DNA from: Cyanidioschyzon merolae
Lineage: Eukaryota
DNA: 64,000 nucleotides
Direction: 5' to 3' (one strand)
Assembly (NCBI GenBank): GCA_000091205.1
Contig: AP006499.2
In this document: in pieces, positions 1 through 56,560 of the stretch
Layout: each line of letters opens with the position of its first letter
How positions within the stretch are numbered: position 1 is the stretch's first letter
The notes under the pieces: generated by a model
Told to the model about the DNA's origin: nothing
Seen by the model: only the letters and a program-made list of their open reading frames with translations
The model's database searches: none
Program-made: the position numbers and the translations under genes

Positions 1-935
1 TTTCCCTGGCACATATGTCGGCGACGCTTGCTTGCTCTGTGTGTGGCGGAGCACAGTTCCCGATAGAATCCAAGCAGCGTTGCCACCCTCGGAGGGATAC
101 ATTTCAACAGGTCGCTTTGGGCGGATCCTTTTTCCCAGCGGGTTCTTTGGAGCTGCCGCTCTCGATGCAGCTTCGTGCTGCTGAGCTAAATAAATATTTT
201 CGGATGCCTGATCCCTAATCCAAGTGAGCATGAGCGCGTGCGGCGTCATCGAGCGCATCACTTTGCAGCGCTGGTTACACAATGGTGAGGATCCCGCTCT
301 TCGCGTTCCAAATGGGTAACCACAGGGTCTTGGTTTGACCCGGACGACGTCCTTCTCTGTGCCAGTCGAGCATTGCATCAAATCACTGTGACTGGCGCCG
401 CCACCGCCACCAGAGACTCAACCTCGTTGATCCCCCTGTAAATCCCAATTCGTTCTGCACCAGGATCCGATACGCTCCGAGGTACTTGGTTGGTGCAATG
501 GGTCTCTAGTGGAAACATCGCAGGCGCATCTGAGAAAACTGTTCAGTGCCTGATACCCGGGATGGTGCCCCGCGTAACCCAGCAACAAGTGATGGATGCA
601 CACACGTGCGTTACACGGCTATCATTGGCCATACTTGGCTTAGGCGAGCGACCATCAGCGCCCATCTGCCACAGGATCATTTGGTTCGTCAGGCATTTTC
701 ATTCATGGTTCAAGTTTTCTCGCGAACCGCTTACATCGAACGGTTTCTAACAAGGCGTCCGTTCGGCAACGTCTAGAGAAAAAATCCGGGCCCATCCGAT
801 GCCCAGCATACCAAACGTGTGCAAACAGGTGCGCTGCTGCAGAAATACACACAACGGATGCGTTCGCTTCCGAACTTGCTTCCCGCAGGCTGCACGTCAA
901 CGCTGTATGATTGATCGAGTTACCAGAGCAACGCT

Positions 936-1868
936 CTAGGCTGCTTCCGCAATGTGTTCTTCGTCACGGGCTGGCGTCGCTAGCTCGGCTCGTGCATCTG
1001 CATTCGTCAGCGAGTTGGACGGTCCCGCGGGAGTGCGCATCTTCCCCGTGACACAAGCGGTTTCCTTGGCCTCAATATTGGCTACTCGTTCAAGATGCAG
1101 CGCCGAATCTCGCGCCAAACTTCTCGAGGTGGGTGCGGACTGCTCGGGTGAGGCGTTTCTTTCACGCGATGGATGCCTCATTTCCTGTGCAGGGCCTGAT
1201 AGTCGCGTATCGGGCGTTAACTCGCGCTCATCTTGTGCTGCAAGTCGATTCGTCACGAGCGGTTGCTGCAATACACGATTCATTGTGAACGCTGCTAACT
1301 CCTGCTCTTGATAGAGCTCCAACAGGGCGCGCTGGGCGTTGGCTTCGACGTCTGGGGTGACCTCACCCTGCAACGCCTGTTCGATGCTCCTCGCGTGCTC
1401 GGCTGCTTCTTGTGTCTCCAGCAGCAAGTCCTCTACACTATGCAAATCGATATGCTCGTTAAGCCTCTTCACAAGCGCCGTGCTTTTCTGGATCTGCAAT
1501 AGTGTCTGTTGCTCCAACTCTGCCGTTTCGATAAGAAGCAGCATCTCTTCGAGACGACTGAGGCACGTTTCCGCGTTTAGAACTGCTCGCTCTTGTACTT
1601 TCATTCGACGTAGCACCAACAGTGCTCGTTCACGGCGGCCTGTAGCGATCAGCGTTCGTGCAACGTCAAGCTCCCGAGCTGCGGCCTCTTCGTAGCGGTT
1701 ACGCAGTTTCGTGACGCGATCACGGGTAGCCTTGATAGCCAGAATCACCTCGTCTCGCTCAGTGATCTCTACCTGGTTCTCTGGGCGCCGGACGTCTTTA
1801 CGTCTGGCTCGTTTCCTGGGTATGACAGCATCAGCAACCGCTCTGTCGCTGACAATGCAGTTTCCCAT
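936..1868 (-). CDS. CHMP6: ESCRT-III subunit, Snf7 family (CHMP6/Vps20-like); start taken at internal Met with MGN N-terminus
   Basis: ORF 936..2027 (-). From MGNCIVSDRA... (myristoylation-type MG start) the sequence ITERDEVILAIKATRDRVTKLRNRYEEAAARELDVARTLIATGRRERALLVLRRMKVQERAVL...VEDLLLETQEAAEHARSIEQAL follows the CHMP6/Vps20 Snf7-domain pattern (coiled-coil charged heptads, acidic C-terminus). The upstream 53 codons of the ORF are treated as non-coding read-through. Confidence 0.65.
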   Translation of the reverse strand: MGNCIVSDRAVADAVIPRKRARRKDVRRPENQVEITERDEVILAIKATRDRVTKLRNRYEEAAARELDVARTLIATGRRERALLVLRRMKVQERAVLNAETCLSRLEEMLLLIETAELEQQTLLQIQKSTALVKRLNEHIDLHSVEDLLLETQEAAEHARSIEQALQGEVTPDVEANAQRALLELYQEQELAAFTMNRVLQQPLVTNRLAAQDERELTPDTRLSGPAQEMRHPSRERNASPEQSAPTSRSLARDSALHLERVANIEAKETACVTGKMRTPAGPSNSLTNADARAELATPARDEEHIAEAA

Positions 1869-2651
1869 GGAAAGCTCAACAGCGACAGCGTAATCAATAG
1901 CACCATCGCCATCGTCATCCGAAATCTGCCGTTCTTGTGCTGGCGGTACGCGCTGCCGCGTTCGGGTTCCCGCGGCTCTGACGGCAAGCGTTCCCTCCGG
2001 TCGTGTTGCTTGCATAGGTTCGAGCACCCGTCAAACGTATGCGTACAGTTCGGGAACTGAAACGAATGTTCGTGCTTCAACTTCATCAGACGTTGCGCTG
2101 CTTCCTGGATGGGCTTGTCCCGAAATTTCTCGTCGTTTTTGAGTTCCCACGTGCTGATGCGCAGCGATGCATTCTCGGAGGCTGAGCAGGTCAATGGACC
2201 AGTTCTTCAGGAGCATGGGCGTCACACGCGGGGACTGATGAAACGGGAACTCTTTATCGCATGGAGGGTCCTCTGGTTTCTAATACGCCGGGCGTCGCGA
2301 CAGCATTGGCAGAAGCGTTGCGAATCCTGCGGACTCGAAAGTCTGAATGAGGCCGTGCGAGCGCTGATCTGTGCTGGCTCCTGTCATACAGCGGCAAAGC
2401 GTCGAAGGCGCAACGCTGAAATGACGACCAGGTATCGTCCAACTAGGTGCGAGTTCGTTAGCATTGCTGCTCCACTTCAATTGTCGAATCTATAAATCTA
2501 AAGAAAAGCTCGAAAAACATCGTAAGGAAAGAACAGGATGAGCACCGATGTGTTCCATGATCATGTGGTACGACTTGTATACCTGATTAGAGACGACTGT
2601 CCGACATGCGATCCAGCAGCGTCTGTTTTTGGGCGCCGCGCAGACGCCGCT

Positions 2652-2891
2652 GACGAGCAAGCGCTCCAGGCGCTAACGAGTAATCCGTCATTTCGTGCGC
2701 GTTCATGCCTCAAACCAGCGTTACCGATCTTCAGTCCCAGTGTACATTTGCTTTTGCAAACTCGCAGTTACGACGAGCAAGCGCTCCAGGCGCTAACGAG
2801 TAATCCGTCATTTCGTGCGCGTTCATGCCTCAAACCAGCGTTACCGATCTTCAGTCCCAGTGTACATTTGCTTTTGCAAACTCGCAGTTAC
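2652..2891. repeat. Perfect tandem duplication, 2 x 120 bp
   Basis: Unit gacgagcaagcgctccaggcgctaacgagtaatccgtcatttcgtgcgcg...ttttgcaaactcgcagttac occurs back-to-back at 2652-2771 and 2772-2891. It is visible as the duplicated peptide DEQALQALTSNPSFRARSCLKPALPIFSPSVHLLLQTRSY in ORF 2538..2972. Confidence 0.85.
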
Positions 2892-5566
2892 GACGAGCCT
2901 ACTGCGAAAGCGATGTGGCCTCTGGTTGCTCGCCCTGCATGGAAACGCACCTTCGATTTTCTCGCCATGTGACGTTCGATCAGCTCACCACACACCGTAT
3001 CGCGCATCCGACTACGCTCTATAGTCTTCTTCTGTACTGGTTTCAGCGCACGCCCGTACTCGTGGTTCGAGTACGTCGTACTGAATTCATGGATGGGAAT
3101 CGTGCAGCACCGAAACCTGCACGCGTTGGACGCGCTCGTCGAAATGGGCAGCGGCGCAGTATTTGCGAGTTTCAGCCTGTCCCGTGCCAAGGGCTGCTGC
3201 AAAATGACGCAAATTTTTGAGCTACTCCTTTTCCAGCTCGTTGAATAGCAAGGCGAATGTCCGCCTCGTGCCTCCCTACATCCGAAACATTACGAGGCTC
3301 TGGCGCGGTCGGATATACTCTTGCCAAAAGTCGTCGAAACGAACAATTTGGACGCTCATTTACTCACTGAATGCAGCGTACCATACCAATCGTTGCTTCT
3401 CGATACAGTGACGAGAGCGTCGAGATCGGTCCTGCCGTCGTCATGCCACTTGTTGATATGCTTCCTCACGACCACTGGGCCCGAACTTAGATAATATCGA
3501 GGCTCAGAAAAAAAGTCAGGCCGTGGTGCATCTTCAGTACCGCCCGTCGGTTGTTCCACAAAGGTTTGACCGAGGAATTCTGGGGGCATGTGAGCGCCTG
3601 GTAGCACCTCGCCCCGAACTCCGACAATCATCTCACTGACGTTGTACGTCAAGGCAAGTGGGGCCGAACAAGACCTTCCCGAAAAAGAAGCTGCAGAGTC
3701 CTTCATGGCTTCCCGCATCTCACAGTTTTGTAAGATTCTTCCCGTAGATGCGTTTTCGTACGGAGCTCTTGCCAATGATTTCACGCAGATCCTTTCACAC
3801 AGGCCGTTTTGCGTTCACGTACTTTCTCGTCCTCTTTCTGAGCGGATCTTTCTCTTCTTTCTTCTGTGGTTTCTTCACTGTCTCGTTTGCATGATGGAAG
3901 GGCACGGGTGCCGTCGCTTAGCTCTATGTCCGTTTCTCCCTTGGGTCCTAGACGCACTGGATGGATGTTGCGACGGATCTTGGCTTTCTCTATCTTTGTA
4001 TCCACTATACTTCGAGCATCTTTTCGCCAACAACCCCGATGCAAGCACGTCTGCGAACCGAAATGCGCCTTTCCATTCTCTTCTGCTATCGAGCACATAC
4101 GCAACGCCGTTGCTCACGGCTAGTGAGGCTAATGAACGGCTTTCCAGAGAAAAATTCGTCTACGAACGGTGTCACGGATGCGAATGAATCGTCTATGGAT
4201 GCGAAAGCTTACAAACGGCGTTTGACAGCATAGAAGCTGCTTCCGATTTGATACAACCAAGGAGAATAGGCTGCCACAAAGTGCAGATTAACGCCATCAC
4301 CGGCTGTGCGCTCTCTGGCCAGTTTTCGGGATGCAAAGCGACGTAGTCTACGAGCCGGACAGAAGACCACCGGAAGAAGAACCCGCAATGCGCTCCGATG
4401 AAGGAAGAGGCGTCAAACGATCCCGTCTGTTTGGGGATGATTCGGTGAGCAAACGACAGCATCGCCGCTCGGGCTGATGTCGCTTTCATTCCCGCTTGTC
4501 TTTTCTTTACGAAGAGCGGTGTGCCGCTACTCTAGGACCCCAACACAGGTCTACCATTTCTCCGGAATGAAGTCAGGTCGACTAAAACGAACATCCGTGC
4601 CACGTGTCGTCAGCGTTCGTGTTCCAGTACGAATTCGCTGGAGTGCGCTTCGTCAGCGTGCGATGCGCTCCCGAAGAAGCGCGCGTCGTTCTTCGCCTAT
4701 CTGCATCGCTTCACCACTGTTCGTTATCAAGGGTATGGAAACGTTGCATGCATGCTGTGGGTTTTTGGTAGTATTTCATAGAGAACGGATGCAGTGGCAT
4801 TGCCTGGCGAGGAAACTGTTGTATATATTGATTCTGATGAGTTCGAGTTCGATTGCTTGACGCTGAGCATATCGCCTAAGCGAACGTTCCTTCATCAACT
4901 TGCTGAAAGTTCAGTAGCTGATTCGTAAGAGGATGACCTGTTTCCGCAATCAAGCAGCAACAGCATAAAATCTTTCCACATTCTCACTCCATTCCGAAGG
5001 ATACAGTTATTTTGTTGCATACCTGCGAAGAAATAAACCAGGACAAAAAGTATATTCTGGTTGAGGTATTCTGGTACCACCGATTATGAGCGTAACGGTA
5101 GCGGCAGCGCGTCCGTGGGCATCGCCGCTGTCGCTCTTCGAACCGACGCCCTTTGTGGTTCGGCACTGCCGTTCTGTCTCCGTGCAGCGACCGCACCGGC
5201 GCTACAGGCGCTATTGCTGCCGGTTTCGGCAGGCTCGGCACACGATAGGGCGTATGAAACGACCAGAATATCCGAGATGAAGTATAGGTCATGTAACCTG
5301 AGAGTAGGAGGTTGATGGCTACCTCACCGCACACTGAAAGAAAAACACACACAAAGAAAATAAGAAACGAAAAATGCGCATAATCGGAGAACGCTGGCCT
5401 ATGGAAACGTTTTGTCCATGAAAAGAAAATGTGCCGCTGTCGCTGCGATCGGGTTGAAGGGCAGCGCGCCGGCGGCGGCGGCGGCAGCGCCAGCGACCCT
5501 AGACACTAGTCATAACCTCGCCGCTGCTGACATCATTCTATTGCCGCTGCGGCCTTTCAGAGCTTT

Positions 5567-14356: not shown

Positions 14357-14440
14357 AAACACACGAACAGGCGACCTTTCTCGCGCCTAAACGACAAACG
14401 TTGCTGCGGTCGACAGCATCGTAGTGGCGGCGAACGCGCC

Positions 14441-16704
14441 CTATCCAAGACGTCTCCAACTGATGTGCAGACGCGTCCCAGTCTTTTCGGACCGGCCACC
14501 TACTAATGCATTCGACTTCTTCTCGTATATATCCATCTTGACAGATTGTCCCACAAAATGCTCTCGTGTCAATTCGGGAGGTCTCGTCTCCAGCACCGCA
14601 CATCTTATGTTGATTGCGGCATTAAAACGTCGGTTCACGAACTCCATATGTTTCTTGCCGTTGCTTTTAGAACTCACTCATGCACGTGGCCCTTCAACTT
14701 TCATCCTCCTTTCCATTTGCTCTTCCGTCAGCGCTCCGTACTTTTCTATATCTTCAGGGCTCAGCTGACACTTTTCCATCTCGACTCTCTGAAGTGTGCA
14801 CCCCGTTCATGGTGTGTATACGATGTTCGAAACTCATCTATCGGTATCGTAACGATACGCCTGGCGCATTCCTTGTACGTTTTTGTCGACGGAGCTGGCG
14901 TAGTCCCTTTTTTGGACGCCCTGCTGCATATGCTTCTACTAGCCTTTGACTCTCGTCCTCCGTGAAAGCGCTCAACTGATTGAAAAAGTTGGCGAATGCA
15001 CGCTGCTTCCTACAGTACATGTTCATACGCTGCCGAGCCGGCCGGGGCGTGGTACACTCTCCTCACAGCACATCCCAATGAGCAACGCGAACTTGTATGA
15101 ATTTCAGAAAAGCCTCAAAGTTCGCGCCGCGGCTCGTCACCTCGCTCAAAGCTTCCAGGTGCTCTTTCACTCCTGCATGCCATGTCTCACTTTTCTTCCT
15201 CGCATTCATGATTCCCGATTCTCGATAGAATCCCGCTCTCGAGAATCTCAAAAGACGCACGTCTTTCTGGCGCAAGTTACCGTCGATGCTCTCTTCCATA
15301 CGCTTCGGTGCTGCGATGGTTCTGATTATCGTGTGTTCCCATGGTCCGAGCCAGTGACAAAATCGTTACCCTGAACTTTCTGCGTCACTGGATCCGCCTT
15401 TTTGTTTTCTTCATGCTTCGTCATGGGCGATATCGAAGACGTAACTGGACGTTTCGCCTTCAAGCGCCGATAGTGTACGCACATGGCTACTCCATCGGTT
15501 TCGATTATCCCAGTGAATACCTTTTGCTTGCTTACTTTGAGTCGTTTGAAATCGAAGGTATTCTTCCAGTAGGTCTCCCGGTTTTCACCGGGGAACTCCG
15601 TGTTGCTTTCATCGAACTCCGGACGGATCTCCTTCGTGATGCTGTAGAGGACTCTGGAGTCGATGGTCACAAAATTTGACTCGATGTTGCACAACGGAAC
15701 GCAATTGAAGCGCTTCCCCATTAGGAAAGCCTTACGTCTCTCCCACTCTTCATTGTTTTTCCTTACTCAGCTTCATCTCCGCGTTGCGTTCTAGTTCTCG
15801 GTTCAAAAACATGAAATATCGCAAGACGAGGCGATTGTATCTTTCCTTATCTTTTTTTCAACTCTGATATCTTTTCCGCTGGACTCGCCAGCCCCAGTAC
15901 CGCACGGTGCTCTTGTATAACCGCACGGATTACGGAAGCTTCATTTGTGCCCTCGTTTGACGCCTTCTTGTCGACGAATTCGACCTCATCTTCATGCTTG
16001 GGATCCTTCGTGATGCCATTGATAATCGCCCACATTCCTTTGCGAGAGATGCCAGGGTACAGCGCAAACACGGCGCGTATCATGAAATGTTCGAGGTTCA
16101 CTGTGAAATGGTTCTTCAGGTTCGTGATGTACTTCATCGCTCCGTAGGTGTAAATATCCGCTTCACCCTTGTATCGAGTACCGTTGAAGCGGTATTCGGC
16201 GTAATTTTCGTGAACGCCATGCACTCGCTCATTTCTCCTCGACGGTTCCCCTGTACCAAGCATCAGGTGACGAATAAAGGTCTTGTCGAAAAACTCGTAC
16301 GGAACCTCGTCTGTTTCCATGTGCGTCACGTCGCGATACATCTCCTTTACGAAATGCAGCAGTCCTGACGATGCCTTTACAATACTCATGGGGTACGAGT
16401 CGACACGGTTTCTGATGGCGTCTCGCAACTTTTGCCTGCAGAGATCCTTGATATGCCCAAAAAGACAGGCTTTCACCACCATCTCGTCGTTGTGTCGTCT
16501 TTCGTGCGGGTTCTGACTTCGGGCTTCCCTGTTTTGCTTCTTCGTCTTGTCTTGTTCCTCTTTGCTCCGCCATGTTTTTCGTTGTCTCCGGCAGCCAGTG
16601 ACATTTAGCCTCCAGGTCCTCAACTTGCTTTTCCATAACTTTCTTGTATTTATTTTGGAAAGGAACGCACGTAGAACGCTTCTGCTACAAACGGCGAAAA
16701 TCAC
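14441..16704 (-). pseudogene. Degenerate Fanzor/TnpB-like nuclease ORF (copy 1), multiple frameshifts plus in-frame TGA
   Basis: Minus-strand ORF pieces 15847..16704, 15326..15721, 15063..15299, 14838..15026 and 14441..14677 concatenate into one protein homologous to copy 3. Motifs: [10 protein letters not shown] (RuvC-I-like GxDxGxT), YKECARRIVTIPIDEFRTSYTHHE (cf. TnpB V-x-V-NPAYTSQTC preceding the zinc finger), and ...KHMEFVNRRFNAAINIRCAV (TnpB RuvC-III ADxNAAxNIlrrG, but the catalytic Asp is Arg in this copy). There are two frameshifts around 15722-15846 and an in-frame TGA before the RuvC-III segment. Confidence 0.6.
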
Positions 16705-16913
16705 TTGAATGAGCTTACTTGAGGGTTGGAAAACAATTCAGCTGAAAAACTATACTTTGCTATTACTTGAACGCAAATACAACTTTTACGGTAGAACAAC
16801 ACGCAAATATTCAGGATCGCGTTTCCCTTCAACGGCGAGATACTCCTCCTGTCTCATGCCTGCCAGATATCCCAGGTGTGCGTATCGACCACGCTATATA
16901 GAACAAATAACAG

Positions 16914-17568
16914 AGACTAACGATGAACTAGCAACGATATAAATATTTATTCCCCCTAGATGAAACGTTAAAAACGGTAAAGGCTTCCCGTACTGTCGAA
17001 AGTTTACCTTACAGGCGGAGGGTCCCGCGAGCCGGGCGACTCTGCTGGGCTGGTGCCCGGTGTGCCTCTAAAGTGGCAGGTGCTGTGGCGAGACCTGAGC
17101 AACTCGTCCGAAACGCAGTTCAAGCTGGAATAAGGGGCATTTGGCCTGCGTTTCAGCGTCGCCCCGGTCGCAGTGGACTCCCAGCATATCGCTTCGCGCT
17201 GCCGCAGACAGTATGTCTGTCCGCGTAGCTTGCAGGCTCCCCGAATAATTATGTATTCCGACCTCGTGTCGAGTGCACCACGCCTCGAGTCAACGCCCGC
17301 AGCGGAACAGCAAAGCCGTACAGTCTCCGGGATATATCTGCTCTGGCGGTTTTGGCGCCACCGCGGGGGCCGCAAGGCAGGCACTCAGCACACGATAGCG
17401 TGTACAAAACGACCCGTATACTCGGGAGGAAGTAAAAGCAATGGAACTTGAGGGCAGGTGCTTCATGATGGACGCCTTTTCGATTACCACTATCCATCCC
17501 GCAATCTGGGATCCATGGTCGATGGAGACGAATTTTGTCATCGGAAAAAATCGATCGCCATCCCATCG
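16914..17568. repeat. Repeat A (655 bp), the 5' non-coding module of the Fanzor-like element; near-identical direct repeat of 18844-19497
   Basis: About 99% identical to 18844-19497, with only a handful of substitutions and one 1-nt indel by eye. A roughly 80% diverged homologue lies at about 55925-56550 inside copy 3. Confidence 0.9.
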
Positions 17569-18384: not shown

Positions 18385-18843
18385 TCATCGCCGAGCTGAG
18401 CATCGCGCTGTGCACACTAGACATGATTCGGAAGCGATGGACCTGGATTTCGAGCCGAGTGGGGAGGCTCTGCAGCTGAATAGCACCAAGCTTGTAAAAT
18501 TCTCCTAACAACATACATATTTGCAGACATTAGGTAGTGCACAATTTGATGACCCGCACAACAGCGAGTTTGCGGTATGTCTCGAAAATCCAGTGGGCAT
18601 GTGCAGAGATACACATATGAGGTACAAGGCAAATTCCACAAGAATCCGACGATGCGTCTCAAGTGTACGGATTGTTTGTCCACGTCATCGGTGCATAAAG
18701 AAGCCGCTACACGGCACCGTGACGCAAAGACAGGTATCACACCGACGCTTTCAGAAAAGTACACACTTTGCGTAGCGCATTGCTGCGCGTCTTTCCAAGG
18801 TCCAGCGAAACCGAATCGAGCCTAGATCGAGGTGCACAGCAGG

Positions 18844-19497
18844 AGACTAACGATTAACTAGCAACGATACAAATATTTATTCCCCCTAGATTAAACGTTA
18901 AAAACGGTAAAGGCTTCCCGTACTGTCGAAAGTTTACCTTATAGGCGGAGGGTCCCGCGAGCCGGGCGACTCTGCTGGGCTGGTGCCCGGTGTGCCTCTA
19001 AAGTGGCAGGTGCTGTGGCGAGACCTGAGCAACTCGTCCGAAACGCAATTCAAGCTGGAATAAGGGGCATTTGGCCTGCGTCTCAGCGTCGCCCCGGTCG
19101 CAGTGGACTCCCAGCATATCGCTTCGCGCTGCCGCAGACAGTATGTCTGTCCGCGTAGCTTGCAGGCTCCCCGAATGATTATGTATTCCGACCTCGTGTC
19201 GAGTGCACCACGCCTCGAGTCAACGCCCGCAGCGGAACAGCAAAGCCGTACAGTCTCCGGGATATATCTGCTCTGGCGGTTTTGGCGCCACCGCGGGGGC
19301 CGCAAGGCAGGCACTCAGCACACGATAGCGTGTACAAAACGACCAGTATACTCGGGAGGAAGTAAAAGCAATGGAACTTGAGGGCAGGTGCTTCATGATG
19401 GACGCCTTTTCGATTACCACTATCCATCCCGCAATCTGGGATCCATGGTCGATGGAGACGAATTTTGTCATCGGAAAAATCGATCGCCATCCCATCG
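18844..19497. repeat. Repeat A' (solo copy of the element's 5' module), direct repeat of 16914-17568
   Basis: Near-identical to repeat A. It is not accompanied by the Fanzor-like ORF and lies between the Rab18-like and p23 genes. Confidence 0.9.
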
Positions 19498-41698: not shown

Positions 41699-41858
41699 GC
41701 AGGTGCCTCGCGTAACGAGTGCTGTCCAGGGGTTGCGTTGGCGCCGGTGTGCTCATGTCCATGAAGCGATTTGCTGGACGGTGTGCATGATTGTACTGTT
41801 ATGTACTGTAATACAAAGTTTGTACGGAATGCCGGCTTTACGCGCACTGGGGCTGCCT

Positions 41859-42126
41859 CGCGTGCCCTGATCGTGGCCCTTGGCATGCAGAAACTGTACA
41901 GAAACGGATTTTGCTGCCCAGACATGTCGCGTGCCCTGATCGTGGCCCTTGGCATGCAGAAACTGTACAGAAATTCCTTTTCCTGCCCAGACATGTCGCG
42001 TGCCCTGATCGTGGCCCTTGGCATGCAGAAACTGTACAGAAACGGATTTTCCTGCTCAGACATGTCGCATGCCCTCATCGTGGCCCTTGGCATGCAGAAA
42101 CTGTACAGAAATGCCTTTGCCTACCC
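41859..42126. repeat. Minisatellite: 69-bp unit x about 4 (units start 41861, 41930, 41999, 42068)
   Basis: cg[c/g]tgccctgatcgtggcccttggcatgcagaaactgtacagaaa[cggattttgctg/ttccttttcctg]cccagacatgt repeated head-to-tail, about 90% unit identity. It lies between PRA1 (-) and the DGAT1-like gene (+). Confidence 0.9.
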
Positions 42127-42300
42127 TAGCAAGAAGGCGTGCTGCATGTGCTGCAGGCCGACCGTTTTGCGCAGCCGATCGCAGGCTGCCGGCAGCGAAG
42201 CGCCACGCACCAGTATACACGCTGTACCGGGATGCGTGCTTGTGTGCGCTGCCAGGCACCAGCTCACGTGCACGAGCAGCACAAGCACTACCGACCCCTT

Positions 42301-43950
42301 ATGACGACAGAGTCTCCAGCGTCTGCTCCTGAAAATGAAGTGATCCAGGGCTCAAACGGTGTGCAGGATGATGCAGCAGCGGTTGAAGTGACTCGCCCTT
42401 CAATATACCCGCAGTCGCACCGTCCGCAACCGCGGGACGTGCCGCTGTCCTTCATCGACGAGCGCAACTTGTTGAGTGAGTTGAAAACATCACGTCTAGA
42501 GGGGTTTTATAACTTGAGTTTTCTCTTACTCGGTTTCGCGCTTTTCTACATGACAGTGCGCTCTATTGTCGAAAAGGGACTGCTCGTGGACTTTGGTGGC
42601 ATCTTGTTTCGTTGCCCAGCGTTCTTGTCCGATGTCTGGTTCGTTCTTCGATTCTCCGCAGCACTTTGGGTGTATTCTCTGCTTTTCTTCCTCTTAGTTT
42701 GGCTGGCTATGGCCCAGAAGCAATACAGTCGCCGTCGCTGGTTACAGCGGCTGCGCATCGCGCTTGCAGTCTGCGGCTACATCGCAGTCCAGGCGGTGTT
42801 ATACTGTGGAAGCACTTGGGTGCTCTGGCAACGACCAACGACACCAGCGCTCGGAGGATTCCTGACTCTTTGGGTTATTACGATATCGCTGAAAGGTCAC
42901 AGTTATTTCATCACAAATTGGTACCTGGCCGAGGAAGCGGAACGAGCTTGGCGAGAACGGGCGCGTCGCAAAAAGGAGACACCCGTCGATGCGCATGAGG
43001 AGCCCCCGCACTCTGATGTAGCGCTTGGTGACGCTACATCTGGTACCACGAAGACCTCGCCAACGGAATCAGATCGTCAGTCGTCGTCTGACATGCCTGA
43101 TTCAAGGGCGGGAACGCAGAGCCGGCCCCTGAAGCGGGACTCCTCGGTATCGAGCGATCTCTCCAGCACGATGAGTGTCGGGTTTTCGCGTGCAGTCCGC
43201 CAGAATCGATTGCGTGGCTTTCCGGCGAATGTGAATTTGGGAAACTTTGCATACTTCATGGTCGCGCCCACGCTGGTCTACGAGACGGAGTATCCTCGCA
43301 CGGAGCGTGTCCGCTACCGCTACGTTGCAACGATGGTAGGCGTCATACTGCTCTGTATCGCGACTCAAGTAGCGATCATGCAGCAGTTTATGCTCCCAGT
43401 TTTACAGGGACAATCGGCTGGTTATTCTCTGGTTTATCATGCAGCAAAACTTGCGATTCCGTCCATTATTGTATGGCTGTTGGGTTTTCTGTGGTTCTTT
43501 CACTGCGCGCTCTCGGCATGGGCAGAGCTGCTTCGCTTCGCGGATCGTCAATTCTATCAGGATTGGTGGAACGCCACGACTCTAGAGTCATTCTGGAACA
43601 AATGGAATATGCTTGTGCATGAATGGGCTTTGCGTCATGTGTTCATTGAACTTCAGTACAGAAGCAAGCGAGTGAGCAAGGCAGCCGCCGGCTTTGCAAC
43701 ATTCCTCGTGAGCGCTGTGCTCCACGAATACCTGTTCGCTGTCGCGTTCAAGACGATCAGCGTTGGTATGTTTCTGGGAATGATGATTCAGGTTCCGGGC
43801 ATCTGGCTTACGCGACACTCGTATTTCCAGGGACGGCGTCGCGGCAATCTGCTCATGTGGCTAATGCTCTTTCTGGGGCATCCGCTGGGCGAGTTGCTGT
43901 ACTTTCGGGCGTATTTTCGGAACCATCATAACTTCTTCTGTCATGACTGA
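42301..43950 (+). CDS. MBOAT-family acyl-CoA:diacylglycerol/sterol O-acyltransferase (DGAT1/ACAT-like)
   Basis: Multi-pass membrane protein with FYQDWWNATTLESFWNKWNMLVHEWALRHVF (the DGAT1/ACAT FYxDWWN signature) and the conserved His region (SAVLHEY). The start is taken at ATG 42301 (MTTESPAS...), because the upstream ORF extension overlaps the minisatellite. Confidence 0.8.
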   Translation: MTTESPASAPENEVIQGSNGVQDDAAAVEVTRPSIYPQSHRPQPRDVPLSFIDERNLLSELKTSRLEGFYNLSFLLLGFALFYMTVRSIVEKGLLVDFGGILFRCPAFLSDVWFVLRFSAALWVYSLLFFLLVWLAMAQKQYSRRRWLQRLRIALAVCGYIAVQAVLYCGSTWVLWQRPTTPALGGFLTLWVITISLKGHSYFITNWYLAEEAERAWRERARRKKETPVDAHEEPPHSDVALGDATSGTTKTSPTESDRQSSSDMPDSRAGTQSRPLKRDSSVSSDLSSTMSVGFSRAVRQNRLRGFPANVNLGNFAYFMVAPTLVYETEYPRTERVRYRYVATMVGVILLCIATQVAIMQQFMLPVLQGQSAGYSLVYHAAKLAIPSIIVWLLGFLWFFHCALSAWAELLRFADRQFYQDWWNATTLESFWNKWNMLVHEWALRHVFIELQYRSKRVSKAAAGFATFLVSAVLHEYLFAVAFKTISVGMFLGMMIQVPGIWLTRHSYFQGRRRGNLLMWLMLFLGHPLGELLYFRAYFRNHHNFFCHD

Positions 43951-47675: not shown

Positions 47676-48455
47676 ATGGACGATGCACCAAAATACTCGT
47701 CAACGATTGGTTGCTTGTTGTTGTTGTTCCTGCTGCTGCTTCTGCTCCTTTATTCACGTGGACGTTGCGAGACCGGCGTTTGGAAGACGCGTCCTCTCCG
47801 AGCGATGGAAACCTATGGTGCTTGCGTCGTCGGCCTTGCACCAGAATGTTTGCAGCCGCTGCCCAACATGAGTGGCAAGTTTATGGGGGCACTCTCGGTA
47901 CCGACGCTCGGGACTGAAAACTCCAACGCGACGCCATGTGCGAAACCCGTTGTGCTCGCAGTGTGGAGGGCGGCTCCGCAGCCGCTCGTGCACGTACCAA
48001 ACTGTTGCAGAGCTGACGTGTTTCTCTCGTTTGACCAGGGCGCTTCCTGGGTTGCAGCCGCAAGCCTGGACCCCGGGCAGAACTCTTGTCTGGTGGTGAT
48101 TCCGGCAGCGTTTCTGGAACAGACTTGGCGTAGCTCTAAAGTTCCAGGCCACGCTATTCTTCAAGTTGGTATTAGTGTAGAAGATGCCAGTGTTGTTCCA
48201 CGACCTGCTCAGGCCACCGGACTCACCCAGGTGGGTTTCGGGGAACATCCGCTTGCCGCCACCGCAGCCGGTACCGGTGTCGTGCCGCCGGGTTTACCGC
48301 AGGCGCTGGCGCGCGACCTCTACCAGTTTCTGCATAGCTTTGATACGACGTTACCAGAGCGTTGTTCTCCTCTGCTTGATCGATGGCTGAAGCGTGTCGA
48401 GCGTCGCTTCGAAGCCGATCCCTGCTGGTGGCGACGCGTGGGGCAAAACACCTGA
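47676..48455 (+). CDS. Hypothetical secreted protein (N-terminal poly-Leu signal-peptide-like segment)
   Basis: 259-aa ORF with LLLFLLLLLLLYSRGRCETG near the N-terminus. I recognise no domain. Confidence 0.35.
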   Translation: MDDAPKYSSTIGCLLLLFLLLLLLLYSRGRCETGVWKTRPLRAMETYGACVVGLAPECLQPLPNMSGKFMGALSVPTLGTENSNATPCAKPVVLAVWRAAPQPLVHVPNCCRADVFLSFDQGASWVAAASLDPGQNSCLVVIPAAFLEQTWRSSKVPGHAILQVGISVEDASVVPRPAQATGLTQVGFGEHPLAATAAGTGVVPPGLPQALARDLYQFLHSFDTTLPERCSPLLDRWLKRVERRFEADPCWWRRVGQNT

Positions 48456-50379
48456 GTCGGCATGGTGTTCACGTGGATACGCAGATGCTAGAGCATGGTG
48501 TGCACTGCGGGAACAGGTCATACTTGGAGGTGTCGACGCTTGCAATGCTAGGATCGTTGGTCGTCGCTGTCAATGAGCGATATCCGCGGGACTGCTTGGC
48601 TGGGCGATGTCACCAAGCTTTGATGAAAGTTTTTCCTCGAAGCGAAAATTTTTTATATAAATACACCGGATAAAACCCAAGTGGATCGTGTCTACAACGC
48701 TGCTGCTGGCGCAGACGAGGCAATGCTCTGGCATCAGAGGCCTTAGTATATGACAAGCAGCGGGAAGTAGCGCGGGTTTTCATGGGTACGCTTCACGCCG
48801 GTGGTATCACGAACGATCATCCCCGGCGTCTGTGGGAAGAGATGGATATGGCTGGGCGGCAGAGATGAGCTGCGCGTATCATGATACCCATGGCAGCGTA
48901 AAATGGAATGCCTCACGAGACCAAGTAGACCGTTCAGGTTCAAGTTTGGCGCTCGATCCGATTTCTTCTACAGAACCGTATCTGCCGGCTTTTTGAGTAA
49001 CTGCTTGTTTTTTCTCGTTAAATGCCGACTGCACCCACACACACACCGGGCTCTTCTTTCGCTCCAGTTTCGGGGCGAAAAGTCGAAGGATGTGGATCGG
49101 AGCGTTCAAGTCCCGATTTAGCTACTTTTGGCCGTTGTTTACGCAAATCACACGCAGGTAGAAGCAGCTATCTCCGCTTCGCTTATCATTTCCATCTCGT
49201 TTGTCGACAGTCTCGACGCACTCCGCGCAGCGGTGACATGTAGCTGTTGGCATTGGGTCCTATACGTCTACGAGACCTGCTGCTACGTGCACTGCGCCGT
49301 CGCACCTGAACGTTTACTTGATCGAACGGTACATTCTCGTGATGAGTACAGAAGGTTAACCTCTGTGCCTTGCTCCGTTTTCGCGACAGGTGTCGTCAAC
49401 GACGACCACGGGCATCCAGCGGGCTATCCGTTCGGCGCGTACGCTGTCCGCAGCAGGTGCAAGCGCTCACCGTTCCATTCCATAGAGGACTTGAGGAGCG
49501 CGATGCTTTCCAGGATAAAGCAAGTACCTGAAGCAGAATCCAGGCTGAGGAACAAGTCGAGCATTTCGATTTGTCTACGCTCTCTTCCTGCAAAGCAGTG
49601 ATACGTTCGCCGCAAAAAGCGATCGCTGCGCTGACTCAACCCCGAGTTTAAGGTCCATTTCTATGCCAGTAGTAGAGACGACAGCCTCTAGGCGCATATA
49701 CAATGCGAGGTATCATGCTGCTGATGCATTGCATTTCTCTGATGCCTCTCAAGTGAGGGGGATGTTCGTTTCGAACGGAATCGATTGGTTGAAGTAAGAC
49801 GTTTGGTGAATGTTCCGGATGGTCTGGTGGATCATTCGTCAAGGAACGAAACGTCCGGTACGTTTCTTCGTCCGTGGAGCCGTGCGAAGGGCTTCGCCAA
49901 CGATTTCGCTTGAAACACGAAGATCGGGAGCTTGGAAGCCGCGTGCTTTCCGCATACTGTACATAAGGAAAGGAGAAGAGAGCAGGCCTTTGCGTTGGAA
50001 TTCGGTGGTGGTACCACTTATCTTACGTACCGTATTACGAGAGCCCCGCGAATAACGTTGAAGACGGTTGGATAACGAATCCAGTGGCAAAGCGTCGACG
50101 CAGCTACTTCGAAACCTGATTAAGAAACCTACACTACGATTGCATTCCAAAGCACTTATAGTCTCTCATCTCAAATTCGTTTTACCCCCCAGGTGCATGT
50201 CATCAAATTCATTTTCGTGGTTTATAGCAAATATGTTCGAAGTGCTCTCATTTGGAAGAAATAGAAAATCCATGGAAAGGGGCGGACCTGGAAGTCAAGG
50301 ATCCTGCAGGCTCGATGTCGCCGGGTTCAACAGCTTTTGGAAAAAAATCCTCTTCTTGGCAACCATAGAGCGAAGAAGA

Positions 50380-50770
50380 ACAAGTGACGGAGAAGAACAA
50401 GAAGGGAGATAGGTGAGAAAATGTATTCGTCCGAAGTGACGATGACGAGACTTTAGTGTCACAGAAGACGCGAGTTCTAGGAATCCTCCTATCGCTGAGT
50501 TCAACCAACGGCAGGAAACGCATTGAGTTCGTGAACCGAGACTTTAATACCGCCATCAATATCAGACGATGTGTGGCGTTGGAGACGAGTCCCGAAGAAC
50601 CAAGGCAATGCAACTTCATGATGCAGCCTCTGACGCTCGTCGTACGACTGGATACACCGAGGCCGATAGCAGGCGGCCGGGGGAAAAAGACTGCGAAGCG
50701 TTTGCGGAACAGTATGTATACACTTACCGTTCAGGATCTTAGGGCGTTGTCCGTTTTCACTCATCACATA
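50380..50770 (+). mobile_element. Truncated 3' fragment of the Fanzor/TnpB-like element (copy 2), plus-strand orientation
   Basis: Plus-strand frame reads RVLGILLSLSSTNGRKRIEFVNRDFNTAINIRRCVALETSPEE, homologous to copy 3 RVKFRGLLAMESATSCNKKWMEFVNRDFNAAINIRRRAVMERR. Downstream, the conserved tail aggcggccgggggaaaaagactgcgaagcgtttgcgg matches the rc of the copy 1/3 tails (gtaggtggccggtccgaaaagactgggacgcgtctgcac). Confidence 0.5.
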
Positions 50771-52513
50771 TTGCAGAGCGTGGTATTTCAAGCCTGCACA
50801 GCGATCAACATTTCGGCTAAAAATCGAAAGGCAAACATCGCGCGAGCTCCATGGTCCCCCAGTTTCGTCTCGTACGAGTGTAGACACGTCCTCTGGACTT
50901 GATGCAGAAGCAGCCGATATCGATAAGCGACACCTGTACAGCACTTGGAGCCTCACGTGTTCTGGTTGAAGCTGATCGTGCACATGTCCACGCATCTTGC
51001 TAGAGAAGGCATCATCGAATAGATTTTCACCGCATCCATACACCTGCTCAGATGATGCAGGTTCTCCATGAGCGTGCATCTGTGCTGCGCAGACACATCG
51101 CGTCTCGAAAAGAAACACAGGCGCTGCAATCAAGTGCGGATCTGAGGATTGCTGGACAACACGAATCGATGCAGGACCTCGGAGCCATTAGCTCGCAGTT
51201 CAGATTCGGGACCCAGCGACGGCTTGTACCGACATCGATTACCGAAAGATATGTGCATGGCGATAGCTAGACTCGGAAATGCAGGAGGAATCGGTATGTG
51301 ACGTTCTGGAGAACGACCTGAAGCGGAATCGAATCATACCAATGTCTGAAGAGACTCTTGTCGAACGGCGGTCCAGTATGACGTGTCACGGGTATGCAAG
51401 ATCATCACGTGATTGGTTTCTTGTGCAGATCCATTGAAAATATCGCATGGAGATGAAGAGCGAGCGTAAAGAGGCAGCCATGCATCAGTCGAGCGCAGGC
51501 CACGAGCGCTACCCTGGAAGGCCGGGTCGCCGACGCAGCACCACAAGCTGCACTCCACGCCTGGCAGCCATTCTATGCCAGTTGGTGCAACATCGCCAGC
51601 ATCCTGGCTCATGGGCAAAGTCTCGGTTGCATAGTGATGTCCAGGCGAGCCGGATTCGCTGATCGCCTCCAGCTGGCAGTACCAGACGCCGATGCGACGT
51701 GTAGCGCCCTGCATGGAAATGCCCAATCCATAGACATTTTGCGAGTCTCCAAATCGCACCGGGAAACATGTCCGCCGTTTAGGGTTCTGTATTTTTCATG
51801 GGGCGTGCCCAGTGTGTCGAACCTGAGCCCCCTGGACGTGTGATTCCTAACTGCGACCAGTAACGCATTCGCGGTTCGAATAGAGAGCTTTTGGGTTTTC
51901 ACAGAGCCCGGGCATGTGTCACACAGCCGGAAATGTGGTATGCATCCACTTTGCGACGTTCCAGGATCCAGAACATGCCATTGGCGCTTGCTGCGATGCA
52001 TTGCTCTGTAGCGCCACCGCGATCACTGTCCAGGGACAGCGCCGCTTTTCGGTGCTCCAATGGAGGCGTCGGCTCGAGGTAAATTCCTCTGTATTGGAAG
52101 CAAGCAGCGTAGATTCTGTGAAATGCCTCCATCGTGACGCTACGGCCGTTCAAGTGCGCTCCGCTCCTGACGCGAATCCCTATTCGGTATGCATCCGTGG
52201 ATTCCCAGTTGCGAATCGCGTCAGCTGCGGTTCCACTGCATCACACCTCTCAAAAAGTGATCGGGGTTTACGAATGGGCGTTTTTGGCCAGCGATAACAA
52301 GCTGTTGAGATTCATACGAATGCATCCCGTTCTTCAGTCCTGGGGCTCATAGTGAACATTCAGCGAGTGCCCGGTGCCAGGTACGGAAGCCAAGGACGGT
52401 CGAGTCGGCAACCAAACGCGCTGCTTTGAAGGATCCACTCGCCGAATGAATCGTCATCAAATCGCATTCCAGTTTTGATGTCGTTGCCGTCTGAGTCGAC
52501 GCTTTACGACCGA

Positions 52514-53371
52514 TCAAGCGAAGGCATATGCCTGGAAACGAAGTTTCTCAGCGAGGTACCGATTCGCCGCAAGAATACCTCTACCGTCGAGAATGAACTG
52601 CGCTCCGTTTGGCAAGAGACAAACACCACCAGCTTCCTCGACAAGCACTTGACCAGCGGCGAGATCCCAGGTATACGGACCCCATTCCGTGACCACATCG
52701 AAACGTCCACAAGCGACGAAGGCCATATTCAGGGCGGCACTGCCGGTGCTTCGAACCGCTTGGGTGCCGTTCTCGAGGATAGATCGCACCATTTCCAGCA
52801 TCATGGCGACTTTGGAGGCGGAGCGATCACTACCGTATTCGGTAGCAATACATGCATCGGGGAGTTCGCTCACACCGCTACAGAAGATCGGCTTGCCGTT
52901 CAGAAACGCCCCTCGACTGCGGCGGGCAACGAACATCTCCTCCATGATGGGGTTGTACACAACGCCCAGTCGAGCTTGACCTTCGGTGATCAACGCAATA
53001 GAGACAGCACATAGCGGAATATGGTGTACGAAGTTGGCCGTGCCGTCGATCGGGTCGATTGCCCAGGTCGGCGGGTCCAAGTCTTTGACCTGGAGGCTTT
53101 CAGGGCGCCCGTCGAAACCCTCTTCCCCGAGCACTCTGTGGCCCGTACCGTACCGCTCCAGGATGCGCCTTCGGCAGAGCTCCTCGACAGCTCGGTCAGT
53201 TTCTGTTACCGGATCCGTACGTTTCTTAACGTCGTATGCCGTGTGGTACCCGCCCACTGGAGCAGTTCGGAACGGCCAGTCTTTGAAGAAAGCCTGGCGA
53301 ATGAGCTCGCCGCACTCACGAGCCAGTGCTTCTGCGAAAACAAGTGCCTGATCCAGCTCCGACTCGAGCAT
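52514..53371 (-). CDS. Inositol monophosphatase family protein (IMPase / 3'(2'),5'-bisphosphate nucleotidase fold)
   Basis: VTETDRAVEELCRRRILERYGTGHRVLGEEG...WAIDPIDGTANFVHHIPLCAVSIALI...WDLAAGQVLVEEAGG carries the IMPase metal-binding motifs (DPIDGT, WD-AAG). The start is taken at MLESELDQ, and the ORF track's upstream extension to 53539 runs into the transposon tail. Confidence 0.85.
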   Translation of the reverse strand: MLESELDQALVFAEALARECGELIRQAFFKDWPFRTAPVGGYHTAYDVKKRTDPVTETDRAVEELCRRRILERYGTGHRVLGEEGFDGRPESLQVKDLDPPTWAIDPIDGTANFVHHIPLCAVSIALITEGQARLGVVYNPIMEEMFVARRSRGAFLNGKPIFCSGVSELPDACIATEYGSDRSASKVAMMLEMVRSILENGTQAVRSTGSAALNMAFVACGRFDVVTEWGPYTWDLAAGQVLVEEAGGVCLLPNGAQFILDGRGILAANRYLAEKLRFQAYAFA

Positions 53372-53467
53372 ACCTCGAGCCTTCAATCCTATGCAGGTAT
53401 ACGCTGCGTTGCCTGCGTAATGTCGTAGTAACCGTGAAGCTTGTCGTGGAAAAGTGCAGCACCGACA

Positions 53468-56400
53468 GCGAACGCCTTTCAAAAGAAAAACGCTGCCGCC
53501 GGCAGCGTACAGCCGTGGCGAAAAACCCGCCCTCGACAAGACGTCTCCAGCTGACGTGCAGACGCCTCCCAGACTTTTTTGGACCGGCCACCTACTACTG
53601 GTTTCAACTTCTTCTCATATAATTCCACCTTGTGAAGTTCCCCATAAAATTCTCTCTCGTCAAGTACGCAAGTCTTCTTTCCATCACCGCCCTTCTCCTG
53701 ATATTGATAGCGGCATTAAAGTCGCGATTCACAAACTCCATCCATTTCTTGTTGCAGCTGGTAGCACTTTCCATTGCAAGTAGTCCTCGAAATTTAACCC
53801 TCCTTTCCATTTGCTCATCTGTCAGCGCTCCGTACTTTTATATATCTTCAGGACTCCGCTGGCACTTTTCCATTTCGACCCTCTGAAGTGTACACCCCAG
53901 TTCATGGTGTGTATGGGACGTTCGAAACTCATCTACAGGTATTGTAACAAAACGCCTTGCGCACTCCTTGTATGTTCTTGCCGTTGGAGCTGGTGTAGTC
54001 CCTTTTTGGGTCTTCCAGCGCCCTGCTCCGTACGCTACTAGGAGCCTCTGACTTTCATCCTCCTTCAAGGCACTCAACTGATTGAAAAAATTCGCGAATG
54101 CACGCTGCTTCCCACAATACAAACTCATTCGCAAACGAGCCCACCGGGGCTTGCTGTACTCCTCCCACAGCGCATCCCAATGGGCGATGCGAACTTCCAT
54201 GAATGTCCGAAAAGCGTTAAAGTCTGCTCGTCGGCTCGTCACCTCGCACAAAGATTCCAGGTGATCCTTCATTCCTGCATTCCATGTCTCGATTTTCTTC
54301 CTCGCATTCATTATACCAGATTCTCGATAGTATCTTGCTCTCGAGAACCTCAAAAGACGCTTGCCTTTCCGACGTAAGTGTCCGTCAGTACCATCTTCCG
54401 CGCGCTTGGGTACTGTGATGTTTATTATATTCGTGTTTGCGGGGTCCGCGCCACCGACAAAATCGTTGTTCTCATGCACTTCTTGCGTCGCAGGATCCGC
54501 CTCTTTGTTTTCTTCAAGCGCCGATAGTGTACGCATATGGATACGCCATTGGTTTCGATTATCCCAGTGAATACCTTTTGCTTGCTTACTTTGAGACGTT
54601 TGAAATCGAAGGTACTCTTCCAGTACGTCTCCCGATTTTCACCGATGAACTCTGTCTTCCTTACATTGAACTCCGGACAGATCTCCTTCATGATGCCGTA
54701 GAGGACTCTGGAGTCGATAGTCACAAAATTCGACTTGATGTGGCACAATGGAACTTCGTTGAAGTGCTTCTCCAGAACCGCAGCCTTCCGTTTCGCCCAC
54801 TTTTCATTTTTTTCCACACTCAGTTTGATCTCCGCTTTGCGTTCGACTTCTCGGTTCAAAAACATGACATAGTGCAGGATGAGGCGATAGCGTCTTTCTT
54901 CATCTTTTTTCATATCTAGTACCTCTTCTGCTCGATTCGCCAGCCCCAGTGCCGCACGATGCTCATGCATAACCGCACGGATCACAGAAGCCTCATTCTT
55001 TCTCCTGCGCGATGTCTTCTTGTTTACAAATTCGGTCTCCTGTTCGTTTTTACTAACGTTCGTGACGCCATCGATGATGGTCCATATCCCTTTGCGAGAC
55101 AGGTCCGGGCGGAGTGCGAACACGGCGCGTATCATGAAACGTTCGAGGTTCATCGTGAAATGATTCTTCATGTTCGTGAGGTACCTCATGGCCCCGTGGG
55201 TGTGCATATCCGCGTCACCCTTGTATCGAGTACCGTTGATGCTACAGAAGATATATTTTTCGTGGAGGGCGTGCACTAGCTCATTTTCACTCCGCATATC
55301 CCATGTGCCAAGCATCAGGTGACGAATAAAGGTCTTGTCAAAAAAACTCGTCCGGAACCTCGACTGTTTCTGTTCCCGTCACGTCACGATACATCCCCTT
55401 CACCAAATGCATTAGTCCCAAAGAAGCCTCACGAACACTCGTGGAGTACGAGTCGACACGATTTCTGATGGCCTCTCGGAAATCTTCCTTGTACGGATCC
55501 TTGATATGTTTAAGAAGACAGGCTTTCACCACTATCTCGTCGTTGTGTCGTCTTTTGTGCAGCTTCTGACGTCGGGTCTCCCCGTTTCGCTCCTACGTCT
55601 TCTCCTGTTCCCCTGAGCTCGGCTCTGATTTTCGTTTTTTCCCAGCAGCCGGCGGCACTGGGCCTCCAAGATCCTTTACTTACATCTCCAAAATTTTTTT
55701 GAAAGAGCACGCTCTTTGAACGATTCTGCGATAAAGCGCGAAAAAACACTTGAGTAAACTAAACTGAGGGTTCAAAAACGATTCAATTGAGAAACTATGC
55801 CACGACTTCAACACAAATACATCTTGTACGGTAGAGCAAGAAGACAATGAGTAGAATCGCGTTTCCCTTCAACGGCGAGAAACCAATACTGTCTCATGCC
55901 TGCCAGGATGGAGGTGCACGTATCGACCGCGCTATATAGAACAATGAAGAGAGACTAACCACTAACTGGCAACGATATGAGAAGTTCGTTCCCCCTCTAT
56001 GATAAACGTTACAAGTGGAAGGCTTTCCATGTTGTCGAAGGTTTACGTTCTAGGTGGAAGGTCCCTCGAGCTGGACGAATCTGCCGAGCTTGCGCTCCGT
56101 GCGACTCTGAAATGGCGGCCACTGTAGTGAAATCTGTGCAACTCATCCGCAGCGCAGTTTACTCTAGGACTCGGAGCGAGTAGAATGCATCTGGGCGACG
56201 CCAATGTTGCAGTTCTCTCCTAGCGTGCCGCTTCGCGCTGCCGCAGGCAGTAGGTCTACCGGTCCAGTTTGCAAGCTCCCGGAATAATGATAAACCCTGA
56301 CCCTGTGGCGGGTCGACGACGACTGGAGCGGACGCCGTCAGTGGTATGGCACAGCTCGTCTTTCTTCGTGTTGTAAAAGCACAAGTAGTATAGGCGGTCT

Positions 56401-56560
56401 TGCGGGTGGAGCTATGCAGGCACTCGGTGCACGATAGAACAAACGAAACGACCAGTTTCTCCCAGAGAACGTATACATCATGGATCCTAAAGGTAGCACA
56501 TATCGTGAAGGAAGCTTCCCTGAATGCCAGTATCCATGGTCAACGTAAACATTCTTTCAA
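53468..56560 (-). mobile_element. TnpB/Fanzor-like element, copy 3 (3' tail + degenerate ORF + diverged repeat-A-like 5' module)
   Basis: Colinear homology with 14373-17568 over the entire length, including the non-coding 5' module (55700-56550 vs 16700-17560) and the 3' tail. It fills the IMPase(-)/CBS-domain(+) intergenic region. Confidence 0.6.
53604..55749 (-). pseudogene. Degenerate Fanzor/TnpB-like nuclease ORF (copy 3); RuvC-III Asp retained, one nonsense codon and at least 2 frameshifts
   Basis: Pieces 55338..55532, 54425..55315, 53838..54536 and 53604..53810 (-). Motifs: [18 protein letters not shown] (RuvC-I-like), YKECARRFVTIPVDEFRTSHTHHELGCTLQRVEMEKC (TS-motif plus degenerate Zn-finger), and MEFVNRDFNAAINIRRRA (RuvC-III D-x-NAAxNI-RR). 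There is a TAA after ...SPEDI where copy 1 has GAA (EKYGALT...). Confidence 0.6.

Follow-up and report, generated by a model that had tools for sequence, protein, structure and literature searches.

The plus-strand interval 50146-50783 of the window (the whole 64,000-nucleotide stretch analysed here) very probably represents an old, degraded member of a short lineage derived by internal deletion from the Fanzor1 element CMe-1A. The copy is derived from a Fanzor1 gene and is not itself a Fanzor1 gene. The initial annotation had described a truncated Fanzor-like copy convergent with a neighbouring one, and this was borne out: the copy is a degenerate, non-coding Fanzor1 remnant, and its neighbour is a full-length pseudogene. 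The initial annotation had also taken the RuvC-III segment and the 3′ tail for the sole survivors, and this did not hold: the leader and opening codons of the element family are matched by positions 50146-50408, which lie directly upstream on the plus strand. With its leader and first codons the copy has an internal deletion and is not a 3′-only remnant.

The locus tags place the window on chromosome "Q" of the red alga Cyanidioschyzon merolae 10D, and other proteins of the window, including citrate synthase (BAM82089) and Nop56 (BAM82085), match 10D proteins exactly. The short copy lies inside a 4-kb unannotated gap that runs from CMQ478C to the inositol monophosphatase (IMPase) gene (GenBank protein numbering). 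The neighbouring genes and the two full-length CMe-1A pseudogenes of the window are as follows.

14421-17543, minus strand: CMe-1A copy A, full-length pseudogene, 84.9% identical to consensus 1-3130.
47676-48455: ORF of CYME_CMQ478C (BAM82098), exact protein match in C. merolae 10D.
52514-53371, minus strand: inositol monophosphatase gene (BAM82099.1), Pfam Inositol_P at E 2e-62, exact 10D protein match.
53473-56537, minus strand: CMe-1A copy B (copy 3 of the initial annotation), full-length pseudogene, 82.0% identical to consensus 45-3169.

Copy A carries several frameshifts. Copy B has an in-frame TAA at 53838-53840 in addition to frameshifts, and its nhmmer match runs from 56260 to 53462. 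A 192-aa antisense ORF (50501-51079) overlaps the short copy and is known only from metagenome gene calls. Elsewhere in the gap, window 49309-49697 resembles positions 1264-1652 of locus L048 (66% identity), and window 49080-49239 resembles L038 363-522 (65% identity, with an E value of only 0.001), both matches lying beside CMe-1A copies elsewhere. The gap between CMQ478C and the IMPase gene may hold several repeat relics. Further upstream, a tandem repeat of 69 bp (3.7 copies, 93% matching) occupies window 41858-42111, just upstream of the ORF at 42139-43950.

CMe-1A was described as a C. merolae Fanzor1 element with about 150 copies and a 3169-bp consensus (Bao & Jurka 2013, Mobile DNA 4:12; PMC3627910). 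The copies are each about 80% identical to the consensus, which encodes a 734-aa protein; the element has no TIRs, its TSDs were not determinable, and its 5′ 635 bp constitute a separate repeat, TE-N2_CMe (PMC3627910). Copies A and B were aligned with the consensus over about 3.1 kb, at 85% and 82% identity, respectively. Hundreds of relatives of the long copies, at 60-83% identity, were found in hot-spring metagenomes.

Forty-eight relatives, the most distant at about 30% identity, went into a protein profile of the parent family. In the PDB the profile matched only solved Fanzor1 structures, those of Parasitella (9cf0, E 1e-19), Spizellomyces (8gkh, E 4e-10) and Guillardia (9cer, E 5e-5); a PDB search with a single family sequence returned nothing. 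On the strength of these profile matches the CMe-1A protein family is assigned to Fanzor1. The parent proteins carry all three RuvC motifs (GADPGNTN, VDEFRTSY and NRDFNAAINI), and between RuvC-II and RuvC-III, the place of the C4 zinc-finger motif of Bao & Jurka, the CMe-1 family has TSYTHHELGC...EKC, with two His and two Cys and not four Cys. Matches to the Pfam family Cas12f1-like_TNB were weak, at E 0.14 for copy B and E 0.0017 for a distant relative, and Pfam searches of the short copy and of the copy ORFs gave sub-threshold matches only. An AlphaFold2 model of the family, made from a shallow alignment, had a pLDDT of 35 and was too poor for use.

Just upstream of RuvC-I, at about profile 1774-1955, the Fanzor ORF contains tandem repeats of ~24-25 aa (…KHEEKKEAGPATQEVEDNDLVV…), the number of which differs among CMe-1A copies from one to at least five (e.g. 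L029, L035 and L039). A much more divergent Fanzor-like remnant was also seen on the minus strand at window 2945-3511 (motif IPIHEFSTTYSNHEYG, 28-32% aa identity to CMe-1); it probably goes back to another, or a far older, Fanzor1 lineage, and it adjoins a perfect tandem repeat (120 bp x 2.1) at 2652-2898.

A nucleotide profile of 29 full-length copies was searched against the window with nhmmer, and two plus-strand matches, not one, were obtained at 50.1-50.8 kb. The first (window 50146-50408) covers profile 429-674 (E 4e-24) and the second (window 50473-50713) covers profile 2608-2851 (E 1e-23); the two blocks lie on a single strand and are separated by 64 nt. Searches with the published consensus (blastn) gave the same two blocks, consensus 786-948 matching window 50157-50324 (70% identity over 168 nt, E 4e-16) and consensus 2849-2971 matching window 50473-50592 (77% identity, E 5e-21). 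When a synthetic join of consensus 776-1021 with 2785-3169 was used, window 50147-50783 was recovered in a single continuous local alignment that crossed the junction and reached consensus ~3144 at 50783, with many gaps in its last part. From these alignments, the short copy reads as consensus 781-1021 joined to 2785-~3144, with an internal deletion of ~1.76 kb. The following parts were distinguished.

50146..50271, plus strand: 5′ block, non-coding leader upstream of the Fanzor ORF (consensus about 781-905).
50219-50228, plus strand: TATA-like box GGTTTATAGC, inside the leader of the 5′ block.
50272..50408, plus strand: start codon and first ~40-45 Fanzor codons, basic N-terminal region, frame-decayed.
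50405..50446, plus strand: deletion junction and weakly alignable start of the 3′ block (consensus about 1021 to about 2785).
50447..50713, plus strand: 3′ block, last ~90 Fanzor codons with RuvC-III (tblastn, nhmmer and blastn).
50714..50783, plus strand: faint traces of the end of the ORF, its stop codon and the beginning of the 3′ UTR (gapped local alignment).

The motif match at 50200-50228, in the leader, was found nowhere else in the window. The published CMe-1A ORF begins at consensus 906 with MEKEVEDPGGPVSPAAGKKRK; the ATG of the short copy is at 50272-50274 and a TAG follows at 50410-50412, the ORF 50068-50412 finishing with ...SMERGGPGSQGSCRLDVAG...EEQEGR*. The 3′ coding remnant lacks an ATG, and a TGA lies in its frame at 50414-50416. 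The short copy contains no intact ORF, both coding remnants being out of frame and interrupted by stops. On the 3′ side the secure homology stops near the stop codon (50713-50750). On the 5′ side the short family begins at about 50146-50160, equivalent to consensus ~781 and internal to CMe-1A. The copy has no counterpart of consensus 1-780, where the TE-N2 module lies, or of 1022-2784, nor was the terminal hairpin, in the last ~25-60 nt, detectable. It does not have the structure of a full-length CMe-1A, which spans about 3.2 kb from one published end to the other and has one 734-aa ORF.

The peptide RVLGILLSLSSTNGRKRIEFVNRDFNTAINIRRCVALE, quoted in the initial annotation, is encoded on the plus strand at 50471-50584, within the ORF 50456-50902, and its relationship to Fanzor-like C-termini was confirmed by tblastn, both with copy A (45% over 69 aa, E 5e-14) and with copy B (43% over 56 aa, E 1e-7). 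Residues 627-713 of P0161, a near-full-length family protein of 716 aa, also matched here (44% identity over 87 aa, E 4e-16; tblastn). The homology was not limited to the short NAAINI peptide, as colinear nucleotides extend for ~240 nt, far past it (profile E 1e-23, 50473-50713). The RuvC-III motif (NRDFNTAINI) is at 50534-50563, with its Asp codon at 50540-50542, and the missing ~1.76 kb of the ORF takes in RuvC-I and RuvC-II. Of the complete RuvC triad (the D of GxDPG, the E of DEFRT[ST] and the D of NRDxNAA) the short copy has the third residue only.

Stretches of about 500 bp that match window 50190-50700 at about 69% identity were found at other loci, namely L039 (which equals L040), L060 and L055. 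L039/L040 aligned with profile 439-673 and 2607-2842, L060 with profile 440-626 and 2608-2848, and L055 with profile 447-665, where it is cut off by the end of the locus; all were alignable with the window copy straight over the junction. The 5′ homology ends within a few nucleotides of one position in four loci, and no significant similarity was seen on either side in the flanks of the short-copy loci. Short copies are 63-74% identical to one another, and a short copy is at most 60-72% identical to any full-length copy over both blocks (42-65 full copies per block, compared by explicit segment extraction). Twenty derived positions are common to the short copies. These figures come from only four independent short-copy loci, in a sample that is biased towards CMe-1A neighbourhoods.

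Contigs orthologous to the window locus were present in the hot-spring metagenomes (98.9-99.2% identity over up to 12.9 kb). Because the same metagenomes contain C. merolae itself, the other short-copy loci (L039, L060 and L055) are most likely paralogous sites in the C. merolae genome. The short copy was present, at about 99% identity, in 7/7 orthologous contigs (L002 and L084-L089), and no empty site was seen among them.

The common junction, the unrelated flanks and the clustering of the short copies together argue that a single ancestral deletion was followed by dispersal of the short form, the deletion being older than the insertion at this site. A near-identical motif of 9-11 nt lies at each breakpoint of the consensus (GCGGGAGGCCC at 1013 and GCGGAGCCC at 2783). 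The microhomology that the initial annotation had proposed as a possible breakpoint signature was therefore found, within the element itself, and suggests that the deletion arose between short direct repeats, as judged from the modern consensus rather than from the actual ancestor. An ancestral element would have lost about 1.76 kb (consensus ~1022 to ~2784), almost the whole nuclease ORF, probably by recombination or slippage between the two motifs. What is left is a unit of ~640 bp: the leader, which includes the TATA-like box, then the ATG and ~40 N-terminal codons, and, fused to these, the last ~90 codons with the RuvC-III motif and part of the 3′ UTR. Presumably the machinery that mobilised CMe-1A, whatever its nature, also acted on this unit in trans, and the copy in the CMQ478C-IMPase gap was inserted before the sampled strains separated. 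We infer the mobility of the short unit solely from dispersed copies with unrelated flanks. Against mobilisation, if the CMe-1A termini are needed in cis, is the position of both short-family boundaries inside the full-length element.

The 5′ block is common to L039, L040, L060, L055 and L038. L038, which extends through the ORF, starts at the same 5′ point as the short family (profile 437), and the short lineage may have descended from a sister subfamily without the TE-N2-containing 5′ extension. Other recurrent internal-deletion forms of CMe-1A were observed in L066, L067, L072 and L073 (profile 28-283 followed by 1996-2939), and further forms in L061, L062 and L078; in one example the TE-N2 module is joined to the last ~940 nt of CMe-1A. 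Deletion derivatives appear to be common in the family.

A spread by segmental duplication or gene conversion, or an origin of the short copies as independent, look-alike remnants of an older sister subfamily, was also considered. The family boundaries differ from the CMe-1A termini, no TSDs were found, and L038 represents a sister lineage with the same 5′ start, as such an account would have it. However, homology ends within a few nucleotides of one 5′ position in four loci whose flanks have no significant similarity on either side, and a common internal junction would be hard to gain independently. This account is improbable, and the dispersal of an internally deleted unit is preferred to it.

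The 3′ end of the parent element was characterised by folding. At the 3′ terminus of full-length CMe-1A copies there is a long imperfect hairpin, seen at window 53462-53513 (minus strand) and at the 3′ ends of about 50 CMe-1A copies (loci L005-L089), in two sequence variants with TTCGACTTTCGAA and TTTTTCTTTTGAAA cores. The 3′ arm of the hairpin (…GGCGTTGTTGGTG) reaches about 10 nt beyond the published consensus end. In copy B the terminal hairpin has an energy of -29.6 kcal/mol, the 0.01st percentile of all 52-nt windows. Over 50 copies the mean z was -2.2, with z < -2 in 26/50, these being values from per-copy folding against mononucleotide shuffles and not from formal covariation; RNAalifold on 32 CMe-1A 3′ ends returned only an invariant stem of 4 bp.

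The 5′ ends of full copies are heterogeneous (profile starts 257, 296-301, 386 and 437), and solitary 3′-terminal pieces measure about 100 nt in L008 and L011, 154 nt in L013 and 443 nt in L019/L045. Together with the terminal hairpin, this means that the 3′ end of the CMe-1A family is fixed and its 5′ end varies, an asymmetry that may bear on its transposition mechanism.

In the short copy, a 102-position profile of the 3′ UTR gave no match at E values up to 10. Across 50650-50950 no strong hairpin was detected, the best 52-nt window being -18.5 kcal/mol (5.6th percentile of the window). A candidate homologue of the terminal hairpin, CGATCAACATTTCGG...CGAAAGGC at about 50796-50846, was ruled out by the 3′-UTR profile and the window-wide energy scan. 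An 11-mer, GATCAACATTT, is common to the short copy and L039 at a similar offset (E 0.05).

These results bear on whether the short family could be a functional mini-element that yields a guide RNA (fRNA/omegaRNA) or a small peptide acting in trans with Fanzor. In favour of this, the short copy keeps a TATA-like box as well as the ORF 3′ end, and the family has several copies. The guide RNA of characterised Fanzors comes from the 3′ non-coding region at the right end, and 20 extra stand-alone fRNA copies, described as highly conserved and structured, were reported in Chlamydomonas reinhardtii (Jiang et al. 2023; PMC10530073). However, the 3′ UTR with terminal hairpins, strongly structured in full copies and by analogy the putative site of the guide scaffold (PMC10530073), was undetectable in the short copies. 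The RNA fold of the short copy was no better than that of shuffles (z = -0.55), and in an alignment of three short copies the alifold covariation term was unfavourable (+2.13), with no net covariation. The paralogues are just 63-74% identical and their reading frames, in the window copy, are broken. Rfam and tRNA scans over the whole window returned nothing.

Strain variation was assessed in seven contigs of ~99% identity aligned with MAFFT, and the misaligned part of that alignment, beyond 53.4 kb, was disregarded. Variable sites per 100 nt were 3.6 in the short copy, 1.3-2.2 in the flanking intergenic DNA and 0.35 in the IMPase gene, the numbers of sites for the short copy and its flanks being small. 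The higher variability of the copy relative to its flanks could reflect relaxed constraint as against regulatory flanks, or a locally higher mutability. In contig L002 the TATA-like box itself carries a substitution (TATAGC to TATGGC). The short copy did not have the properties of a conserved, structured fRNA/omegaRNA scaffold under purifying selection. A functional mini-element is highly improbable. The short copy is an inert relic that cannot encode a nuclease and bears no sign of retained function.

The relationship between the short copy and copy B was examined in the light of the claim that the two are convergent inverted repeats bracketing the IMPase gene. The short copy is on the plus strand and the copy at 53473-56537 is on the minus strand, hence they are convergent; their 3′ ends are about 2.7 kb apart, and the IMPase gene (minus strand) lies between them. 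The convergence stands, but the two do not form a substantial pair of inverted repeats, only about 70-240 nt being common to them at about 62-78% identity. The convergence of the short copy and copy B is coincidental. A target-site duplication around the short copy was looked for, and no 7-mer or longer was common to both boundary zones.

The initial annotation had attributed the remnant to an abortive or template-jump-like insertion of a 3′ end, or to a deletion between copies; this was not sustained, the copy consisting of two blocks with a junction that recurs at paralogous loci. More broadly, an origin in situ (a Fanzor element truncated on site, abortively inserted from its 3′ end, or trimmed together with the neighbouring inverted copy) is highly improbable and largely refuted: the solitary 3′-terminal pieces and the heterogeneous 5′ ends of full copies do indicate that 5′-truncated insertion appears to occur in the CMe-1A family, but the short copy has the 5′ leader and first codons too, an identical junction recurs at three or more further loci in unrelated surroundings and the short copies group together, those loci are not assembly copies of the window locus (the sequences around them are different, and L084-L089, the orthologous contigs, are distinct from them), and, since the IMPase gene between the inverted copies is intact and copy B is complete to its 3′ terminus, nothing was lost between the copies.

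As a dispersed, internally deleted derivative, the short copy was compared with known systems. Like CMe-1A, it belongs to the same genome and family, is colinear with the consensus in two blocks (70% and 77%), and lacks TIRs and detectable TSDs; unlike CMe-1A it is just about 640 bp long and belongs to a separate short sub-lineage. A derivative of this kind is not mentioned in PMC3627910 or in the searchable literature.

TE-N2_CMe (~635 bp) is likewise a short, non-coding, many-copy relative of CMe-1A. The two have nothing in common in sequence, however, as TE-N2 corresponds to consensus 1-628 whereas the short unit begins at ~781, and the short unit is built of a leader block and a block from the 3′ part of the ORF. 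A solo TE-N2_CMe was observed at window 18843-19473 (minus strand; consensus 1-628, 80.6% identical to the consensus). It is 98.6% identical to the 5′ end of copy A (16913-17568), and this near-identity suggests a recent local duplication or gene conversion. A further TE-N2 fragment of 174 nt is at window 5135-5308 (minus strand).

MITE-type internal-deletion derivatives include Ds, which stands in this relation to Ac, and the PATE-like derivatives of IS200/IS605; classical internal-deletion derivatives keep both parental termini. As in the Ds/Ac type, the short unit is without the central coding region, its end-proximal parts are colinear with the parent, and one deletion is present at several loci. 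It differs in that neither published CMe-1A terminus was detectable in it, and no TSD or empty site was found. With the stand-alone fRNA copies of Chlamydomonas it shares the character of a short dispersed unit from the 3′ part of a Fanzor element, and it differs from them in lacking the 3′-UTR/hairpin module, a structure signal and conservation.

It would be very surprising if the short units proved to be a once-selected mini-Fanzor lineage, in which a promoter-driven 3′ guide-RNA precursor or small peptide parasitised the full-length CMe-1A protein, or if they carried internal mobilising cis signals. In the second case, the evidence for internal cis signals in this unclassified element would be the spread of units that have neither CMe-1A terminus.

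The short copy is ordinary genomic debris, neither a working gene nor a pointer to an unusual mode of insertion. With it, a transposon family already catalogued in 2013 gains another decayed copy, and the biological weight of the finding is small. Neither the short lineage nor the asymmetry of the element ends alters the present understanding of Fanzor function. Beyond the catalogue, a short lineage marked by a defined internal-deletion junction has arisen from CMe-1A, and a repeat annotation of its own for this lineage would prevent its misreading as an abortive or 3′-primed insertion. The asymmetry between the 3′ hairpin, which is kept, and the heterogeneous 5′ ends could help to classify CMe-1A.
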